From contig NZ_CP080507.1 of assembly GCF_019464535.1 (NCBI RefSeq), positions 2,250,001 to 2,282,000 of the forward strand: 32,000 nt of DNA. Direction: 5' to 3'. Positions 7,527 through 15,735 of the stretch are shown here, in pieces. How positions within the stretch are numbered: position 1 is the stretch's first letter; each line of letters opens with the position of its first letter. The notes beneath the pieces were generated by a model. That model did no database searches, was not told the origin of the DNA, and saw only the letters and a program-made list of their open reading frames with translations. Both the position numbers and the translations under genes were made by a program. This DNA is from Horticoccus luteus (GTDB lineage Bacteria > Verrucomicrobiota > Verrucomicrobiia > Opitutales > Opitutaceae).

Positions 7527-9743
7527 TCACGACCCTGCCGCGTCCGGTTGCACCCGCAATTCGATTTGCTCGGCCAAAATTCCCAGCAGCCGCGGATCGT
7601 CGTCGCCCGGCGACACCGCCGGCTGCGGCAAACGCAGCTCGATCGTCGTCGCGCCCGGCGGCACGGCGAACGGCTTCACTTTCACCCACGCGAGTTTCAC
7701 GCCCACGTTCACCGTCTGCACGCGTTGACCATTCGCCCAGATTTCAACCTCCCGCGGCACCAGGCTTCGCGTCAGCATCCGCAGTTCGATCTGCCGCGAT
7801 TCCGCGTGCGGATTGCCCACCGCGATCGTCGCGTTCCCCGACGTCCATTGCCAGCAAAGCCCGCTGTGCACGCGCGTCTCGCGGCCATGCCAGCCCGTCC
7901 CGAGCTCCGCCTGCAGATACGACGGACTCGCCCGTCGGATGACTGCGTAACGCTCGTTGAGCACCCAACCATCCGCCCGTTTCGGCGGCACCACGCGCAA
8001 GATATGACCGTTCAATTCCCACTCGCCTCGCATCGGCGTGTTGCGCCGCCCCTCATAGGTGTAGGTGTGAAAATACTGCGCCCGCCGCAGCAAAAACTGG
8101 TTCGCCCACAACCGCTCCCAGAAATCCGGCACCTCCAGGTTGATCGACGTCACCTCCGGATGACCCTCGAGCTGCTGCACCGCCGCGAGCCGTCGATCCA
8201 CCTTCAACGGCGGATCCGCCGCCTCCCTCAAAAACGCCACCGCGCCCACCCCCACGCCCACCGACACCGCCAGCGCCAGCAAACCCGTGCTCCACCTCAC
8301 CCACCGCACCCGCGACCGCGTAAACATCAGCCACCCACAAAACGCCGGCAGCATCCCCACGTAGAACACCGCGAACAGCTTGTAGGCATCGTAGCTCGCG
8401 TTCGTCCCGAGATGTTTCCCCCGCCACCACAGGTAACCATAGCCCACCAGAATCGGCGCTGTGAGCGCGACCGCCGCCCACGTGCGGCTGCGTTGACCAC
8501 GCTGCGAAAACCCCGCCACGAGAAACGCGATCAGCGCAAACACCACCACGACCGATCCCGCCCATTGCCACTCCGGGCCGATCGGATGCAACCCCGGCCC
8601 CGCCCGCACGCCCAACCAGCCCGACGGCGCCAAGCCCCGGATGTGCCACCCGATGTCCGCCTCGCGAAACAACAGCAGCCGCTCCCACAACCCCGCCACC
8701 CGCGTGAAAAAAACCGCCCCGGCCACGACGAGCGGCGTGAGCATCAGCCACGCCCACCGCCCGAGCCGCCGCCACTCGCCCGTGCGCAGCGTCAGCCCGC
8801 CCGCAAACGCCACCGCCGGCACCAGGCACACCAGCAGGATGAAATTATACGCTCCCAGAATCAGCGCATAGCCCGCGAACAACAGCCCGCTCAACGCCAC
8901 CCCGTTCCGCCTCGTCGGCCCCGCCCGCCACAACACCACGCCCGCCCACGTCACCAAAGCGATCGCCACCGCCGCGATCAATTGCGCCGTCGCTCCATGA
9001 TACACCGCATACCACGTGATCGGATTAAAACCATACAACGCCGCGATCCACACACTCCCGCGCTCCCCGTGCCCCACCACGCCCCGCGCCATCCACACCA
9101 CCGCCGGCACCGACACCGCCAGCAGCACCGTCGTGAAAACGCTCACCACTTGAAACGCCTGCCACCCAAACACACTCGCGTTCAACGCCATCAACGCCGA
9201 CGGCGTGAAGTGATTCAGCCGCAGCCAAAAATCGAAAAAGTTGTCCACCGAGTGCAGCCCCACCACCTCCGTCAACCCCATGAACCCGCCGCGGTCGCCA
9301 TGACTGAATTCCATGAACACCCGCGCCCCCGCCGCGTAATCCGCCGCATCGCAGCTCCCCAGCGACAAACTCGTCAACGCCGTCGCCGCCCACGTAAACG
9401 GCGCCACCAACACCGCCTGCACCAACGCCACCAGCACCCACACGCCCCGCGTCCGCCAAACCGGACGCCCGACCGCGAGCCCCCGCCGCCGCACGCGCAT
9501 CCATCCCGCCACGAGCAGCAACAGCGGCACCACCTCGCTCCACCGCGCATAAACATCCGTCCCCGCCACCTCCGTGTGCGCCGCGAAAACCCACACCACG
9601 ATCGACTGCAACGTGAGACCCAGCGCCGGGACAAATAGCGGCCAGAAATGCCAGTGCCGCCGCGGCGTCACGAGCCACGCTGCGCCCACGCCCCACCCCA
9701 GCACGTGAAAGAGCAGACCGAATGCGGCGAGGAAGTAGGCCAT
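7527..9743 (-). CDS. Polytopic membrane protein, GT-C-like putative glycosyltransferase with a C-terminal extracytoplasmic domain
   Basis: 738 aa. At least 12 hydrophobic helices in the first ~520 aa, then a soluble tail ending ...GDDDPRLLGILAEQIELRV. First gene of the SDR/aminotransferase/ArnC-like operon (16 nt gap to the next gene). I recognised no named family motif. Confidence 0.6.
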   Translation of the reverse strand: MAYFLAAFGLLFHVLGWGVGAAWLVTPRRHWHFWPLFVPALGLTLQSIVVWVFAAHTEVAGTDVYARWSEVVPLLLLVAGWMRVRRRGLAVGRPVWRTRGVWVLVALVQAVLVAPFTWAATALTSLSLGSCDAADYAAGARVFMEFSHGDRGGFMGLTEVVGLHSVDNFFDFWLRLNHFTPSALMALNASVFGWQAFQVVSVFTTVLLAVSVPAVVWMARGVVGHGERGSVWIAALYGFNPITWYAVYHGATAQLIAAVAIALVTWAGVVLWRAGPTRRNGVALSGLLFAGYALILGAYNFILLVCLVPAVAFAGGLTLRTGEWRRLGRWAWLMLTPLVVAGAVFFTRVAGLWERLLLFREADIGWHIRGLAPSGWLGVRAGPGLHPIGPEWQWAGSVVVVFALIAFLVAGFSQRGQRSRTWAAVALTAPILVGYGYLWWRGKHLGTNASYDAYKLFAVFYVGMLPAFCGWLMFTRSRVRWVRWSTGLLALAVSVGVGVGAVAFLREAADPPLKVDRRLAAVQQLEGHPEVTSINLEVPDFWERLWANQFLLRRAQYFHTYTYEGRRNTPMRGEWELNGHILRVVPPKRADGWVLNERYAVIRRASPSYLQAELGTGWHGRETRVHSGLCWQWTSGNATIAVGNPHAESRQIELRMLTRSLVPREVEIWANGQRVQTVNVGVKLAWVKVKPFAVPPGATTIELRLPQPAVSPGDDDPRLLGILAEQIELRVQPDAAGS

Positions 9744-9918
9744 CCGTGAGGAGCGGCCACCCTGACGCCTCCACCGCCCGTGTTAAGGAAAAACGTCCCC
9801 CCCACCCGCCGTATGATTCGCCTCAACGCCCCGCCCGCCATTCGCTTCGCGCTCAACGCCCGGCCCGATTCTCGCCATCTACCGGGCCCGCCTATTAGCC
9901 TTACGCGTCACGGGTGGA

Positions 9919-9984
9919 CCGTGCGCTCCGCGCGCGGTGATTGGTCGAGCGACGTTGCGTCCAAGTCGCGCGCGGAGCGCACCG
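9919..9984. repeat. Imperfect palindromic (REP-like) element, copy 1
   Basis: A perfect 16-bp stem, GTGCGCTCCGCGCGCG (9921-9936) with CGCGCGCGGAGCGCAC (9967-9982), encloses a 30-nt loop. Arms and loop are both closely similar to 15613-15677. Confidence 0.8.
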
Positions 9985-10753
9985 CTCACCTCTCCGTCTG
10001 CGACCCGGACTTCAATCCGCCCCAACCCAGCGGCGTCTTCGCTCCGTCAAAGCCGCCGCCCAACCGCGCAAAAACTCAAAATTTTGTTCGGCGACCGCCC
10101 GCCCATCCGCCATCGTCCGTCCACTCCGCGTGCGCCCGCCTCACCCTGCCTCCACTCGCACTTTTCCACCCCGCTCGCTCGCCCACGCACCGGGGCGTCA
10201 CCGGGTTCTTGTTCGCCAATGCTTCGCTACATCCGTCGCGTTCGTCGTGGATCAATCCGTTGACCAGCAGGCAACGTTCGCCGCCCGGCTGCACGCCGTC
10301 GACGATCGGCCCTTCGACTTCCCGCCAGTTCACCCCGTTCAAAACGGGAACAACGTGCGCCTGCGCTTCTTCAGCCCGCCTACGACTACGACGACGATTC
10401 CGCCGCTTCTCCGTCGAACACGCGCAGCGGCCACGGGACCGGCTCGATACAACTATGCCGGCAGGACCATTCCTCTGAGTCGTCGCCAGAAATATCCTGC
10501 CCCCAGCACTGTCCCTTCGCGTCTGAAACTCATGGCGGCAAAGGAAGTAACCCGCGCCCGCCGAAAATATTTGCGCGCCAGTTCGCGCTCCGCCGACTCG
10601 CACCACTCGACCGCAACTTACAACTACGCCGCTCGGCGCAACCTCACGGTCCCGACCTTTCGCCGAGCATCTCCTGCTCCAACGACCTCCCGCTACGCTT
10701 CACGGAGCCACTTACGCTCACGCGAAGATTTTGTCGCCCCAAACAGTGGAGCC

Positions 10754-11305
10754 ATGGGCCCCGCTGGGCCGGCCGGGAATATTTTGGTTTCAGCCACCGG
10801 AGGCCCCGCAGCAGGTAACAGCGTCTATGACCTTGGCTCGAAAGCCATAGCGGGAGCTGGAGGAGTTCAGACAGCCGTAGGTTTGGTTGGAACCACGGGG
10901 GCGTCGATAGGCAGCAATGGCAAGGTTTATACCAGTGGCTGGGGCGGCAACCAATACGTCACAACAGCCAAGTTCGCAGAGATAGCCACCAAGGCCGGAT
11001 TTGTTTTAGCGGCGGCTGGAACGGCGTGGGATTGGATTAATGTGTTCAATGGGAGCGGAAGTATCTCTGGCACTAAGGCGACGGTGAACACTGGATTTAC
11101 TGGGCTGGGGCTGCTAGGTGGTCCGATGGGCGCAGCCGGTGGCGCTGGATACTTCCTCATCGACAACTTCTATCCGGGCGGCTGGTTGGGCAATGGATCG
11201 AATCAGCCCTACAACGGCGCAGGTGCGCTGCGTGATTATGGCACAACGATTGAGAACAATCAGAAGATCGTCCCGGGGTGGGAACCGCGCGATCCTCCGT
11301 TCTAA
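10754..11305 (+). CDS. Glycine-rich protein with a glycine-zipper hydrophobic segment (candidate membrane-active toxin or bacteriocin); unrecognised family
   Basis: 184 aa from ATG 10754; an in-frame ATG at 10532 is an alternative start. Codon usage and GC are visibly different from the flanks. Contains AGFVLAAAGTAWDWI and FTGLGLLGGPMGAAGGAGYFLI (GxxxGxxxG). No signal peptide. Confidence 0.5.
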   Translation: MGPAGPAGNILVSATGGPAAGNSVYDLGSKAIAGAGGVQTAVGLVGTTGASIGSNGKVYTSGWGGNQYVTTAKFAEIATKAGFVLAAAGTAWDWINVFNGSGSISGTKATVNTGFTGLGLLGGPMGAAGGAGYFLIDNFYPGGWLGNGSNQPYNGAGALRDYGTTIENNQKIVPGWEPRDPPF

Positions 11306-11322
11306 CGCCAAGACGCATTGCA

Positions 11323-11730
11323 ATGAACCGCTTGAAACAAATCTACCTGACAGTCTTCACTCTCTTTTTTCGAGCAGCGGCTGACTCTTGGACTGCGTCG
11401 ATCAACGCTTGGAAGGGTGTTGTCGGGGTGACGATGATCGAGTGGGCGATCCTTGTCGCAGTGAATGCATGGTTGCAGTGGTGGCTTGGCACAAAGCTCT
11501 TGTTCGGGTTGGAGAAGTGGGCGTTCTACGCGCTGTTTTTACTGTCGTTTGGTGTGAACTATTACGCCCTCATCACCCGCGGCTTTGGCATCCAATACGA
11601 GCAAGACTTCTCTACGCTGCCTAAGAGGGAAAGAACGTCGCGGCTCGTAATCGGGATCAGCACCGTCGTCGTGATCGTCGGGTTGTTGGTTGTGTCGTTT
11701 TATACAGCGAGGCCCGGTGCGCCTCGATGA
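11323..11730 (+). CDS. Small 4-TM membrane protein (candidate immunity partner)
   Basis: 135 aa from ATG 11323, 17 nt after the preceding stop; the track ORF 11278 start would overlap the upstream gene. Four hydrophobic helices: IYLTVFTLFF, VTMIEWAILVAVNAWLQWWL, WAFYALFLLSFGVNYYALI, LVIGISTVVVIVGLLVVSFY. Same low-GC composition as the upstream ORF. Confidence 0.55.
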   Translation: MNRLKQIYLTVFTLFFRAAADSWTASINAWKGVVGVTMIEWAILVAVNAWLQWWLGTKLLFGLEKWAFYALFLLSFGVNYYALITRGFGIQYEQDFSTLPKRERTSRLVIGISTVVVIVGLLVVSFYTARPGAPR

Positions 11731-11818
11731 GTCAGGCGGCACACGTCGCGCCAGCTCTCCGCAAGCTCCGATCTGTCACGCCGTCTGCTTCCTCCTCCGC
11801 TGTCGCTCCGTCCGGTGG
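11727..11818. repeat. Direct repeat of ~85-92 bp, copy 1 (begins at the stop codon of the 4-TM gene)
   Basis: ATGAgtCAGGCGGCACACGtCGCGCCAGC...TGTCACGcCGTCTGCTTCCTCCTCCGCTGtCGCTCCGTCCGGTGG. It recurs at 11910-11993 with one internal indel. Confidence 0.8.
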
Positions 11819-11819
11819 C

Positions 11820-11853
11820 GCAAGCCGGACGGGGTCGCAAGCCGGACGGGGTC
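11820..11853. repeat. Perfect 17-bp tandem duplication (GCAAGCCGGACGGGGTC x2)
   Basis: Read directly at 11820-11836 and 11837-11853. CCGGACGG also pairs with CCGTCCGG at the end of direct-repeat copy 1. Confidence 0.85.
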
Positions 11854-11909
11854 AGGCCGATAATTGTTGATTTTGTCCTGCTGCGCTGACGCTTGCCGCA
11901 ACGTCCTCA

Positions 11910-11993
11910 ATGACCCAGGCGGCACACGCCGCGCCAGCGCCGAGCCGCTGTCACGTCGTCTGCTTCCTCCTCCGCTGGCGCTCCGTCCGGTGG
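11910..11993. repeat. Direct repeat of ~85-92 bp, copy 2
   Basis: ATGAccCAGGCGGCACACGcCGCGCCAGC...TGTCACGtCGTCTGCTTCCTCCTCCGCTGgCGCTCCGTCCGGTGG, lying 183 bp after copy 1. Confidence 0.8.
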
Positions 11994-12137
11994 AGTCCTG
12001 CCCCGCCGGGGGCGGCGTGCGCGGCAAGAATGCCGCGCGAACGCGGCGCTCCTGTAAGACCCGCGCCGGCACGTCACGCGTCCACTGCGCTGCGCTACGT
12101 TCCCGCGAGTCGTGCCCGCCCTATCGTGACCGGCGGG

Positions 12138-13802
12138 GGGGCCCAAGCCAAAAACCTCATGTCTTGACTCTTGACAATCACGCGTGGAACAACGCGCCCG
12201 AGGCCTCGCGTGCAGGTCGCCGTCCACTCCGCCCTCTCACTCCCTTAAGTAGCGCCACCCGCGAGACCGAAAGACCCTCGAACTCACGAACCTTCCCCTG
12301 CTCACCCTCCTTTCCGGCCTACCGCGAAGATCGAACTTCCCCACGGAAACGCGGCGCCCGTCCGCAGCCACGCTCGCTCCAACGTCATTGCCCCGCGCAG
12401 CACCCCCTCGACCGGCGCTGGCATCAGCCGCACATCCGATCCAGCCGCCGGCGCCGGCCACAACTTCCGCCGCGCCACGATCAACGGCAACGGCAACGTG
12501 TTCCAGTGCGTCAGCCGCTCCACCCCAAAGCCCGCGTCAACCAGCAGCCGTCGCATCCCTGCCCGCGTGTAGCGCCGGCGTCCCTCCACCGCCACGTCGT
12601 GATACGACCATAACCACGGATGCGCCGGCACGTTGATCACCGCGACACCACCCGGCCGCAGCACGCGGACAAACTCCCGCACCGCCGCCGCGTCGTCGTC
12701 GAGATGGTAAAGCACATCCGTCGACACCACGGCGTCGAATCGCGCATCCCCCAGCGGCAACGCCGTCAACGGCGCCTCCCTCACCTCCGCCGCCGGCGCG
12801 CGTTCCCGGGCGAGAGCCACCGCCACCGGCGAAATATCCACGCCCGTCCAGCGCCACGCCTTCTCGTCCGCCAGTCGCCGCATCAACCCGCCCGTGCCGC
12901 AACCCGCGTCGAGCAACGCGGCCTCGCGTCCCGCCCACGCCCTCAACGCCCCGCGCACGTGCGCGTGCAACGGGCCCGATCCGAAAACCTCATGTCTTGA
13001 ATCTTGACTAGCGCGTAGCACAACGCGCCCGACGCCTTGCGTGCAGGTCGCCTTCCACTCCGCCCTCACTCCCTTAAGTAGTGCCGCCCCGCGAGACCGA
13101 AAGACGCACGAACTCACGAACTTTCCCCTGCTCACCCTCTTTTCCGGCCTACCGCGAAGATTGAACTTCCCCACGGAAACGCCCCGCCCGCTCGCAGCCA
13201 CGCTCGCTCCAACGTCATTGCCCCGCGCAGCACCGCCTCGACCGGGGCTGGCATCAGCCGCACATCCGATCCAGCCGCCGGCGCCCGCCACAACTTCCGC
13301 CGCGCCACGATCAACGGCAACGTCAACGTGTTCCAGTGCGTCAGCCGTTCCACCCCAAAGCCCACGTCGACCAGCAGCCGTCGCATCCCTGCCCGCGTGT
13401 AGCGCCGGCGTCCCTCCACCGCCACGTCGTGATACGACCATAACCACGGATGCGCCGGCACGTTGATCACCGCGACACCACCCGGCCGCAGCACGCGGAA
13501 AAACTCCCGCACCGCCGCCGCGTCGTCGTCGAGATGATAGAGGACATCCGCCGACACCACGGCGTCGAATCGCGCATCCGCCAGCGGCAACGCCGTCAAC
13601 GACGCCTCGATCACCTCCGCCCCCGGCGCGCGTTCCCGGGCGAGAGCCACCGCCACCGGCGAAATATCCACGCCCGTCCAGCGCCACGCCTTCTCGTCCG
13701 CCAGCCGCCGCATCAACCCGCCCGTGCCGCAACCCGCGTCGAGCAACGCGGCCTCGCGTCCCGCCCACGCTTTCAACGCCCCGCGCACGTGCGCGTGCAA
13801 CG
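12138..13802. repeat. Head-to-tail tandem duplication, two units of ~830-834 bp (12138-12972 and 12972-13802)
   Basis: Long collinear near-identical stretches. For example, 12150-12360 matches 12984-13190 (AAAACCTCATGTCTTGA...CTCCCTTAAGTAG...CCGCGAAGAT(C/T)GAACTTCCCCACGGAAAC), and 12420-12970 matches 13250-13800. Homology stops at GTGCGCGTGCAACG on both units. Confidence 0.9.
12302..12970 (-). pseudogene. 5'-truncated paralogue of the class I SAM-dependent methyltransferase (lacks ~35 N-terminal codons and an ATG)
   Basis: Its translation (..LHAHVRGALRAWAGREAALLDAGCGTGGLMRRL...SSIFAVGRKGG*) differs from the 13132..13863 product at roughly a dozen of ~220 positions. Homology ends at the duplication junction. 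Only TTG (12970) or GTG (12958) could serve as starts. Confidence 0.6.
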
Positions 13803-13863
13803 CACGGAAATACCACATCGCGTCCTCCACGGCGGCGAGCTTGCGGTGTTCCTCGGGACTCAT
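13132..13863 (-). CDS. Class I SAM-dependent methyltransferase
   Basis: 243 aa from ATG 13863 (MSPEEHRKLAAVEDAMWYFRALH...). SAM motif I LLDAGCGTGG, then VVSADVLYHLDDD and LRPGGVAVINVPA. I preferred this start over the track start at 13938, which would overlap the divergent GT4 start codon. Confidence 0.85.
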   Translation of the reverse strand: MSPEEHRKLAAVEDAMWYFRALHAHVRGALKAWAGREAALLDAGCGTGGLMRRLADEKAWRWTGVDISPVAVALARERAPGAEVIEASLTALPLADARFDAVVSADVLYHLDDDAAAVREFFRVLRPGGVAVINVPAHPWLWSYHDVAVEGRRRYTRAGMRRLLVDVGFGVERLTHWNTLTLPLIVARRKLWRAPAAGSDVRLMPAPVEAVLRGAMTLERAWLRAGGAFPWGSSIFAVGRKRG

Positions 13864-13936
13864 TCCTCCGAGCGAAGCCGCGGCGTTAAGCTTTGCCAAG
13901 GGAAACACCGCCGCCCAGCGTTGCCCGCTCGCCGCC

Positions 13937-15559
13937 ATGCCTGAGCGCCGCCCGCCACGCCTCGAACATTACACCGGAATTTTCTTCGACGAAATTCATC
14001 CCGGCTCCGCGTGGATGCGCGACACCGCCGTCTTGCGCCTCCCGCCCTTGCGCCAGTCGGTCGAACTCGTGCTGCGCGGCGAATTCATCACGCTGTCCAA
14101 CGCCGGGGCGCTCCCGCGCGCCGAGGTGTTGCTCGGCCGCCGCCGCGTGGCGCGTCTCGCCCCAACGTCTCCCGGGCCGTTCGCCATCGCCCTCACCGCC
14201 TCCGCCGCGCAAGCCGCGCACGGCCTGCACCTCACGCTCAAACTCCGCGGCGTCGCACTCACCAACGCCGCCGCCTGGCTCGGACGCCTCTTCGCTGGCT
14301 GGCCCGGCGCGGGCCGGCTGCAACGGTTCCGCGCGCAAACCAAAAACCGTCAGTTGCGCGTGCTGCGACTCGAGACCGCCGCCGGCGAGCTGATCTACGA
14401 TTTCGCCAACCGCACCGCGCCCATTTCCGCCGCCTTCAAGCGCCGCTACCTTCACCTCGGTCTCAACATTGCCGGGTTTTTCCGCGCCGACCTCGGCGTC
14501 GCAGAGAGCGCGCGCTGCATGGTCCGCGCCGCCGACGCCGCGAACCTCAACGTCGCGCTCATCGAACTCCGCCTCCCCTGCAAAAACCCCGCGACCGACG
14601 ACACCTACACGCCCCGCCTCGCCACCGCCGCGCCCGAATCGGTCAACGTCATCCATCTCGACGCCCCCGTCTCCCGCGACGTCGATCACTATCATCCCGG
14701 TCTGCGCGCCGGCCGTTATAACATCGGCTATTGGGCGTGGGAGCTGCCCGATTTTCCCGACGTCTGGGTGCCGCACGCACGTTATTTCGACGAAATCTGG
14801 GCGCCCTCGCGCTTCGCCGCCGACGCCATCGCCGCCAAAGTCCCCGTGCCTGTCCTGCCGATGCCGCACGCGATCGGCTTCACGCGCCCGACCGCCGCGC
14901 CTCCCGAGTTGCGCGCCAAATTCGCCCTCCCGCGCGACGGATTTCTTTTCCTCTTTCTCTGCGATCTCAACTCCTACGCCGAACGCAAAAACCCCCGCGC
15001 CGTCCTCGAAGCCTTCCGCCGCAGCGGTCTCGCCGGCACTGGCGCCGCGCTCGTCATCAAGGTGCACAACGTCACCGGCAACGAAGCCGATCTCGCCGCC
15101 CTCGAAGCCGCCGCCCGCGATCTCCCCGGCACCACGCTCCTCGCGCGCACGCTGCCGCGCCACGAAATCTACGAACTCGAAGCCGCGTGCGACGCCTTCG
15201 TCTCGCTGCATCGCGCCGAAGGTTTCGGACTCGCGCTCGCCGAGTGCATGTTTCTCGAACGCCCGGTGATCGCCACCAACTGGTCCGCCACCACCGAATT
15301 TCTCAATGCCGCCAACGGCTGTCCCGTCGACTACCGCCTCGTGCCCGTGGCCCGCAGTCACGGGCCCTACACGCAAGGCCAGGCGTGGGCCGACCCCGAC
15401 CTCGATCACGCCGCCGACTGGATGCGCCGCCTCGCCGGCGACCGCGCCCTCGCGCAACGCCTCGGCGCCGCCGCCCGCGCCACGATGGAAGAACACTTCT
15501 CGCCCGCCGTCATCGGCGAACGCTACCGCCGCCGTCTCGAAGCCATCGCCACGTGGTGA
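13937..15559 (+). CDS. Glycosyltransferase family 4 (GT-B) with an ~240-aa N-terminal non-GT domain
   Basis: 540 aa from ATG 13937; the track ORF 13724 start lies inside the divergent methyltransferase gene. The GT4 C-terminal half carries the EX7E-type region (SLHRAEGFGLALAECMFLERPVIATNWSATTEF). Confidence 0.8.
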   Translation: MPERRPPRLEHYTGIFFDEIHPGSAWMRDTAVLRLPPLRQSVELVLRGEFITLSNAGALPRAEVLLGRRRVARLAPTSPGPFAIALTASAAQAAHGLHLTLKLRGVALTNAAAWLGRLFAGWPGAGRLQRFRAQTKNRQLRVLRLETAAGELIYDFANRTAPISAAFKRRYLHLGLNIAGFFRADLGVAESARCMVRAADAANLNVALIELRLPCKNPATDDTYTPRLATAAPESVNVIHLDAPVSRDVDHYHPGLRAGRYNIGYWAWELPDFPDVWVPHARYFDEIWAPSRFAADAIAAKVPVPVLPMPHAIGFTRPTAAPPELRAKFALPRDGFLFLFLCDLNSYAERKNPRAVLEAFRRSGLAGTGAALVIKVHNVTGNEADLAALEAAARDLPGTTLLARTLPRHEIYELEAACDAFVSLHRAEGFGLALAECMFLERPVIATNWSATTEFLNAANGCPVDYRLVPVARSHGPYTQGQAWADPDLDHAADWMRRLAGDRALAQRLGAAARATMEEHFSPAVIGERYRRRLEAIATW

Positions 15560-15612
15560 TGCTCGCTCTGCGTAAGGGGGCTGGCCCTTTCGATTGACGC
15601 GGCGCCGGTGAA

Positions 15613-15677
15613 CCGTGCGCTCCGCTCGCGGTGGATTGCCGGCAACGTTGCGCCCAAGCCGCGCGCGGAGTGCACGG
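15613..15677. repeat. Imperfect palindromic (REP-like) element, copy 2, between convergent genes
   Basis: CCGTGCGCTCCGCTCGCG ...loop GTGGATTGCCGGCAACGTTGCGCCCAAGC... CGCGCGCGGAGTGCACGG. Same arms and loop as 9919-9984, in the same orientation. Confidence 0.8.
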
Positions 15678-15735
15678 CCCACCCGTCAGCCTATTACGCG
15701 AGCGTCCCTCATGTGCGCTTGCTCCCGCGCACGCC

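Follow-up and report, generated by a model that had tools for sequence, protein, structure and literature searches.

A putative orphan Rhs toxin and immunity cassette inserted in a glycan operon of Horticoccus luteus

A two-gene cassette of Horticoccus luteus (Opitutaceae, Verrucomicrobiota) is probably a horizontally acquired orphan Rhs tip, in which ORF1 is a predicted membrane-depolarizing toxin and ORF2 would be kept as an orphan immunity protein. The cassette lies in a 32-kb stretch of the genome, referred to below as the window (positions 1-32000). Its two open reading frames (ORFs) are located on the + strand and separated by a 17-nt spacer, as the preliminary description of this DNA had stated and the coordinates confirm. 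Both products are annotated as 'hypothetical' by NCBI. K0B96_09455 is the ORF1 frame begun at TTG 10784 (173 aa), and K0B96_09460 is identical to ORF2. The start of ORF1 at ATG 10754 stands as first described, but its length is 183 aa rather than 184 aa, which is the number of codons including the stop.

The homologs of ORF1 reveal its likely origin. A large protein collection contains four relatives, one of which (P0004, an 'RHS repeat-associated protein' of 311 aa) matches ORF1 over 91% of its length, following the core-end motif ...GGDPVNGFDSNGK. A profile of the ORF1 domain, searched against 1.84 billion representatives of clusters at 50% identity with a cut-off of E ≤ 1e-3, retrieves 295 cluster representatives. 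The 150 matches listed extend to, or close to, the C terminus of their carriers, proteins of up to 3178 aa, and two Rhs carriers in fetched loci, L008 and L021, reach 3239 and 3535 aa. RHS_repeat is present in 12 of the 26 carriers scanned and DUF6443 alone in one further carrier; some additionally contain DUF6443, or SpvB together with TcdB_toxin_midN. No other delivery family and no CdiA-type domain was found in the 26 carriers, nor does any Pfam model cover their terminal, ORF1-like domain. So far the family occurs in Verrucomicrobiota-like contigs, Bacteroidota, and a Citrobacter metagenome-assembled genome (MAG).

The conserved domain corresponds to ORF1 residues ~25-165 and is present as a whole. 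ORF1 is, by homology, a complete copy of an unnamed C-terminal toxin domain of Rhs/YD-repeat polymorphic toxins. Since the window contains neither an Rhs core nor a core-end motif, ORF1 is a homolog of the cargo domain and not an Rhs protein in itself.

Neither protein matches a named family, in agreement with the preliminary description: Pfam, NCBIfam, PADLOC, and the PDB sequences yield no significant match for ORF1 or ORF2. For ORF1, Pfam returns no family at E ≤ 1, including the glycine-zipper families of SlyB/OmpA-type envelope proteins (Rick_17kDa_Anti among them) and the colicin pore-forming domain. NCBIfam contains no matching family either, and the ORF1 profile finds only a chance match among PDB sequences (E = 8.6). 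The anti-phage defence models of PADLOC match neither ORF, and no relative of ORF1 was found in the plasmid and phage collections searched.

The closest relative of the cassette is found on a metagenome contig, L005. It encodes an Rhs protein that is truncated by the contig end and spans at least 795 aa, with YD repeats and a core that terminates in ...RDPIEESGGVNLYAFVGNNAVNAWDYLGM / ...NAWDYLGM. The core is confirmed by matches to the structures of RHS2, TccC, and Tse5. The last 164 aa of the protein are 95% identical to ORF1, and an ORF2 homolog (P0005, the closest ORF2 relative) follows 17 nt after the Rhs gene with 97% identity. At the DNA level, window positions 10810-11730 align with L005 1894-2814 at 95.8% identity, and the blastn match ends exactly at the ORF2 stop. 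The ratio of nonsynonymous to synonymous substitution rates (dN/dS) between the two copies is 0.27 for ORF1 and 0.14 for ORF2. The similarity to the window starts in the linker, ~160 codons past the L005 core end. A core-end motif of the DPxGL type precedes the toxin domain in the homologs P0004, L005, L007, L019, and L021.

ORF2 contains three strongly hydrophobic segments, at about residues 32-54, 58-86, and 107-127, and a conserved but weakly hydrophobic N-terminal segment at residues 6-16. Family-averaged hydropathy over 62 members shows that the three firm transmembrane (TM) segments are conserved. The family also keeps an N-terminal K-x-IYLT-x-F...FR segment and a basic loop. ORF2 was previously credited with four TM helices; as judged from hydropathy only, three are firm and the fourth (6-16) is doubtful. 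The family comprises 64 clusters, all of small, unnamed proteins without a Pfam domain. Sub-threshold matches to DUF515 (18 bits, cut-off 29) and Psb34 (E = 0.2) both fall on the last TM segment and were dismissed.

All fetched loci were searched with profiles of both proteins. Of the 17 loci with a toxin domain, 15 have an ORF2-family ORF just a few nt behind it; they span Verrucomicrobiota-like contigs, Chryseobacterium, Flavobacteriia, and the Citrobacter MAG. The toxin of the last three is just 28-45% identical to ORF1. An ORF2-family gene also follows the Rhs genes of L018, L019, and L021, and members of the family are located directly behind DUF6531-Rhs genes of more than 3000 aa. The identities of the two proteins to ORF1 and ORF2 co-vary, being 95/97% in L005, 64/51% in L002, 63/51% in L004, and 38-43/37% in L001. 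The recurrence of an ORF2-family gene right behind the toxin domain in several phyla points to ORF2 as the cognate immunity protein, predicted by hydropathy to be a polytopic inner-membrane protein. The toxin/immunity pairing proposed at the outset is thus strongly supported, both by the Rhs C-terminal homology and by a partner that is conserved alongside the homologs rather than missing from them. ORF1 is a predicted toxin that ORF2 would neutralize.

Some loci deviate from the one-to-one arrangement. In Chryseobacterium candidae (L017 2-4849), three toxin-domain copies succeed one another and an immunity gene is detected after the last only, and in the Citrobacter MAG contig (L016 3-1874), one toxin is followed by two ORF2-family genes. 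These two loci are typical orphan and poly-immunity arrays. Two other loci, L003 and L022, carry an ORF2-family gene without a toxin, in L022 among restriction and toxin-antitoxin genes. In L023 (1-5951), a cassette ~82% identical to that of the window precedes two ORFs, of 59 and 1594 aa; the N terminus of the larger one appears relaxase-type by eye (..HREHGRTELHLVVANVH..) and its end is Rhs with a different C-terminal domain.

The cassette interrupts a run of genes on the - strand that encode a GT2 glycosyltransferase, a DegT aminotransferase, an epimerase, a 738-aa membrane protein, methyltransferases, and a GT87-like protein. For comparison, nineteen metagenome loci with relatives of the 738-aa membrane protein (40-55% identity) were collected. 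In all twelve that also show the methyltransferase gene, the methyltransferase is followed by the membrane protein, and the aligned segments are 21-416 nt apart (21-93 nt in ten), compared with 2558 nt in the window. None of the twelve contains ORF1 or ORF2. Longer contigs show the wider order GT87 - p598 - methyltransferase - membrane protein - epimerase - (DegT) - GT2. The difference in junction length indicates that the cassette is an insertion, in all likelihood horizontally acquired, between two co-directional genes of a glycan operon. The comparison with relatives called for earlier thus finds the pair absent, and the empty sites bear out the idea of an insert; its supposed length of ~1 kb does not hold, as the whole interval measures 2.56 kb.

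The base composition of the cassette is distinct. The GC content of 10754-11730 is 56.3%, compared with 65.6% for the window (z = -3.1). It is essentially the lowest among all 977-nt segments of the 32 kb, of which the minimum (56.0%) begins at 10731, and 300-nt segments within it go down to 0.52-0.59. The GC content at third codon positions (GC3) is 0.60 in ORF1 and 0.70 in ORF2, versus 0.63-0.85 in fifteen neighbouring ORFs. The ~1 kb of low GC and deviating composition first noticed by hand is therefore real when computed against the window. The tip is 5-15 points lower in GC than its flanks in every context examined, a full-length Rhs gene included, a gap that corresponds to the classical contrast between Rhs core and tip. 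The GC skew of the + strand is strongly negative over the whole window (-0.07 to -0.36 in 1-kb segments) and positive over the + strand cassette only, because its coding strand is opposite to that of the neighbours. In H. luteus, the coding strands show a marked enrichment in G.

No Rhs core was found in the 32 kb by tblastn with the L005 and L023 Rhs proteins, and the open frame upstream of ORF1 is empty of Pfam matches. The window also contains no integrase of the type seen in L001, no tRNA genes, and no Rfam families. These absences indicate that the cassette is an orphan Rhs tip, apparently without Rhs shell or delivery domain. The term 'bacteriocin-like', used in the preliminary description, is accordingly imprecise for what is an Rhs C-terminal toxin domain in orphan form.

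Related contigs offer a glimpse of how tips could move. L001 (1-7786) and L020 (1-11717) contain two related elements, each with a helix-turn-helix protein, a DnaG-type primase, and a tyrosine integrase, that are 83-88% identical in DNA. Each element abuts an Rhs core tail followed by a toxin and an ORF2-family immunity gene; the junction with the Rhs sequence differs between them, lying ~130 aa ahead of the core-end motif in one and ~15 aa in the other. A full-length Rhs gene of more than 3000 aa (L019 8157-9947) has a 3' end that shares 97.7% identity with the L020 tip, and the apparent end of another tip module lies to the left of the L020 element. This arrangement suggests that, in these related contigs, integrative elements reside in the 3' end of rhs genes and may displace the resident tip as an orphan.

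ORF1 consists of 21.9% Gly and 13% Ala and contains no Cys or His. No Sec signal is discernible by eye. The sequence contains one strict GxxxGxxxG at residues 122-130 (GGPMGAAGG) and several small-xxx-small runs, so that the glycine richness and zipper spacing ascribed to it are both present. The family shares the motifs iGsNgkvY, sGWgGNQYVsT, GGPxGA, and FYPGG, but only Y59, G65, D93, and Y133 are conserved in at least 90% of members. A set of His, Cys, Glu, Lys, or Arg residues typical of nucleases, deaminases, or ADP-ribosyltransferases is not conserved in the family. Two charge-free stretches keep small residues, and the glycine-zipper spacing is conserved family-wide. An AlphaFold2 model built from 96 sequences has a mean predicted local distance difference test (pLDDT) score of 80.8, exceeding 90 over residues 50-140; with four sequences only, the score was 32 and the model unusable. 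The model is composed of five helices and a small sheet, with GxxxGxxxG in helix 4.

Depolarization of the membrane is the favoured activity because no catalytic residue set is conserved, the charge-free stretches keep conserved small residues, the model is helical with a zipper, and the partner is polytopic. 'Membrane-active' is a reasonable inference on these grounds, not a result.

In its native setting, the ORF1 domain makes up the C-terminal ~150-165 residues of a large Rhs protein. As is established for Rhs proteins, the shell, built of YD repeats, would enclose the toxin, which would be released after the aspartyl-protease motif at the core end upon delivery to a neighbouring cell. The toxin would then insert into the cytoplasmic membrane of the target through its Gly/Ala-rich helices and dissipate the membrane potential, while the ORF2-family protein encoded just downstream would protect the producer, presumably by blocking the toxin inside the membrane. 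ORF1 of H. luteus would not be deliverable to competitors, because the Rhs shell and every delivery domain have been lost; by itself it cannot be fired and is no secreted weapon. The cassette most likely persists through ORF2, which would protect against neighbours armed with the same Rhs toxin, and the loci with an immunity gene alone suggest that ORF2 is what selection maintains. ORF1 may be an intact passenger, a spare tip, or a toxin-antitoxin-like partner.

Functionally, the nearest systems appear to be Tse5-CT/Tsi5 and the ionophores of contact-dependent growth inhibition (CDI), by shared features rather than by proven membership. Tse5 (RhsP1, PA2684) of Pseudomonas aeruginosa carries on its Rhs protein a C-terminal domain (CT) of ~150 residues without predicted enzymatic activity; Tse5-CT depolarizes cells and forms ion-selective pores, and Tsi5 is an integral protein of the cytoplasmic membrane (PMC9637101). 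ORF1 resembles Tse5-CT in size, type of carrier, and membrane-embedded partner. However, there is no detectable sequence relation between them, in a PDB-sequence set that includes Tse5 solely as its core chain of 1121 residues. ORF2, with three to four TM segments, has more than the two predicted for Tsi5, and Tse5 is a complete PAAR-like-Rhs-CT effector whereas the window copy is without the Rhs part. CDI ionophores of the CdiA-CT EC93 family are predicted five-helix bundles with a glycine zipper in helix 4, and the CdiI proteins encoded next door are small and very hydrophobic, forming highly polymorphic cognate pairs with CdiA-CT (PMC11630599). The ORF1 model likewise has five helices with GxxxGxxxG in the fourth, a likeness of described architecture. 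It differs by an extra small β-sheet; moreover, the CDI carrier is CdiA, of beta- and gammaproteobacteria, and not Rhs, and CdiI has 72-100 residues and two TM segments compared with the 135 aa of ORF2. Integral-membrane immunity proteins have been described for both depolarizing toxins, Tse5 and CdiA-CT(EC93) (PMC9637101, PMC11630599). Of the features of the wider class of glycine-zipper depolarizing toxins (Tse5-CT, CDI ionophores, EsxX), ORF1 displays the zipper without catalytic residues and ORF2 is, by hydropathy, an integral-membrane immunity protein.

Two further comparisons are informative. Like the orphan rhs-CT/rhsI modules of Enterobacteriaceae, the cassette pairs a toxin-domain gene with an immunity gene, lacks a delivery part, and has a GC content below that of its surroundings. 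Classical orphans, however, form arrays right after the main rhs gene and keep a piece of the core, whereas the H. luteus cassette begins inside the linker before the toxin domain. It is therefore an atypical orphan Rhs tip, isolated and core-less inside a glycan operon. Pore-forming colicins (colicin A/Cai, E1/Cei) are helical toxins of the inner membrane that are blocked there by a small immunity protein with 3-4 TM segments. ORF1 and ORF2 share this layout, but ORF1 differs in size and delivery route and, as noted, has no match to the colicin pore-forming domain. Orphan immunity genes can protect against non-self effectors, according to two reports (PMC10539506, PMC7043789).

Several observations weigh against an orphan tip with a depolarizing toxin, or parts of it. 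There is no main rhs gene in the window and no core remnant, so that the classical orphan arrangement does not apply, and a full-length rhs gene with which the tip could recombine may be present elsewhere in the H. luteus genome, as the search covered 32 kb. The ~1 kb between the membrane-protein gene and the cassette (9744-10725) is not accounted for by this reading. ORF1 may not be a mere passenger, given its complete domain, its start codon, and its low dN/dS. Its Kyte-Doolittle hydrophobicity is weak, with only one 19-residue window above 1.2. The predicted pore formation is without a structural match, as Foldseek of the ORF1 model against the PDB gave nothing below E = 0.6.

These points lend some weight to other explanations. 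The toxin/immunity pair could be genuine while the toxin is no pore or ionophore, hitting instead a membrane-embedded target, such as a transporter, the lipid-carrier cycle, or a respiratory complex, or acting enzymatically at the membrane surface. The modest hydrophobicity of ORF1 and a model that shows a small β-sheet and amphipathic helices, with no obvious 20-residue TM helices, would agree with such an activity, in which the invariant D93 and Y133 could be functional; but no catalytic-type residue set is conserved, neither Pfam, PDB sequences, nor fold comparison links the domain to any enzyme, and the glycine-zipper spacing is kept family-wide. We regard this explanation as rather unlikely. 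It is also unlikely, slightly more so, that the cassette serves as a reservoir tip, that is, as spare ammunition swapped by recombination into a full-length rhs gene elsewhere in H. luteus. Orphan tips are mobilized by recombination in Salmonella and E. coli (see also PMC7043789), and the ORF1 domain is complete and under purifying selection. Yet the window copy has no Rhs core to provide a recombination handle, and rather than following an rhs gene it sits in a glycan operon, on the opposite strand.

A third explanation holds that the pair is an addiction module resembling toxin-antitoxin (TA) systems, with ORF1 made inside the cell and, if ORF2 is missing, harming the membrane from within the cytoplasm, so that the cassette stabilizes itself or regulates growth. 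In Salmonella, an orphan Rhs toxin acts with its immunity protein as a type II TA module (PMC7043789), and Tse5-CT is toxic from the cytoplasm (PMC9637101). The proximity of the two ORFs on one strand is compatible with such a module, as is an extra 57-nt segment that creates the in-frame ATG and TTG starts of ORF1. On the other hand, no promoter-like site was found in 9700-12400, and the Shine-Dalgarno-like GGAG is only 2 nt from the ATG. The orphan in L002 has lost the N-terminal helix and the upstream start; together with the immunity-only loci, these losses suggest that the toxin part is dispensable. A TA-like role is thus improbable. Far less credible is an ordinary envelope pair of a SlyB-type glycine-zipper protein and a membrane partner serving the glycan pathway. 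Its position inside the glycan operon and its glycine-rich sequence would suit that role, but no glycine-zipper Pfam family matches, the homologs are the C termini of Rhs toxins and not the SlyB-type envelope proteins that the preliminary description had allowed for, and the pair is absent from the twelve related operons, lies on the opposite strand, and is foreign in composition.

The reading as an orphan Rhs tip assigns a concrete role to two hypothetical proteins and delineates a toxin domain, together with an immunity family, both missed by the profile libraries tested. The kind of system is already known, as Rhs tips, orphan modules, and membrane-embedded immunity proteins are well described; what is new here are the uncharacterized toxin and immunity families, unnamed in those libraries. 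The cassette is also a clean example of an interbacterial-warfare module that has landed within a conserved glycan operon of the cell surface, for which relatives supply the empty sites. As the family is large and always Rhs-borne, characterizing one member at the bench would provide annotations for hundreds of effectors, many of them from Bacteroidota associated with soil and plants. A broader proposal, whose chances we place a little below even, is that the ORF1 domain founds a widespread Rhs toxin family (at least 295 clusters at 50% identity) that depolarizes the inner membrane through a glycine zipper and is countered by an immunity family with 3-4 TM segments that also circulates alone; in addition, and with a basis in related contigs only, integrase-primase elements at the 3' end of rhs genes may swap such tips and leave the old one behind as an orphan.

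The features of the cassette and its junctions are listed below.

Table 1. Coordinates of the cassette and adjoining features in the window
Feature	Position	Strand	Details
ORF1	10754-11305	+	ATG 10754, TAA 11303-11305; 183 aa (184 codons including stop)
ORF2	11323-11730	+	ATG 11323, TGA 11728-11730; 135 aa
Left similarity edge to Rhs tips	10726-10753	+	encodes ..DFVAPNSGA, compared with ..AFSGNAPNSGA in L005 and ..FSFAPNS in L002
Extra in-frame segment	10754-10810	+	57 nt, 19 codons, absent from L005 Rhs; brings ATG 10754 and TTG 10784
3' tail shared with cassette relatives	11731-11890	+	95-nt element copy 1 and an AT-richer 52-nt piece
95-nt element, copy 1	11722-11818	+	overlaps ORF2 stop
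95-nt element, copy 2	11905-11993	+	88-96% identical to copy 1; copies 175-183 nt apart
Junction interval	9744-12301	.	start of the 738-aa membrane-protein gene (9743, -) to stop of the nearest methyltransferase gene (12302, -); 2558 nt

At the left edge, the window and L005 have in common the 16-nt sequence CCCCAAACAGTGGAGC (10738-10753), read by eye. After it, L005 passes directly to the part that matches the window from ~10811 onward, consistent with the blastn match from 10810. The intervening 57-nt segment was also read by eye, the two copies having been left unaligned by MAFFT. In L002, an independent orphan starts at the 'F-x-APNS' point as well.

The ~1 kb upstream (9744-10753) is of host-like GC (65%) and contains no recognizable gene. 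Three long ORFs overlap here, one of them an open frame of 271 codons that runs on into ORF1; none has a Pfam match, and the GC by codon position gives no clear coding signal. This DNA may be part of the inserted DNA. A decayed Rhs gene was considered for it on account of strings resembling 'YNYAGR' and 'YNYAARRNLT', and set aside as unsupported, as tblastn with the two Rhs proteins and Pfam at E ≤ 10 were empty and a coding signal was lacking.

On the right side, the 52-nt piece (11840-11890) is 83% identical to the sequence right after the L023 ORF2 homolog. The first 30 nt of copy 1 of the 95-nt element also occur behind the L006 ORF2 homolog, but not in L005 or L023, and no further copies of the element were found in the 32 kb. 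Tandem repeats of a 17-nt unit, CGCAAGCCGGACGGGGT, lie at ~11819-11852. No convincing target-site duplications or inverted repeats flank the cassette, and terminator-like sites in 9700-12400 are at chance level.

Two repeats in the operon DNA deserve mention. Positions 12139-13800 are a tandem duplication of a ~830-nt unit with the methyltransferase gene, in which blocks are 84-95% identical. The distal methyltransferase copy (13132-13938) starts with ~45 codons that the copy nearer the cassette (stop 12302) lacks; the related operons have a single copy. In addition, a GC-rich palindromic element of ~88 nt at 9903-9990 (arms 9913-9936 and 9967-9990) recurs with 82% identity at 15597-15683, at the 5' end of the 598-aa ORF and just before the gap to the GT87-like gene. 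It looks like a repetitive extragenic palindromic (REP)-like or hairpin repeat.

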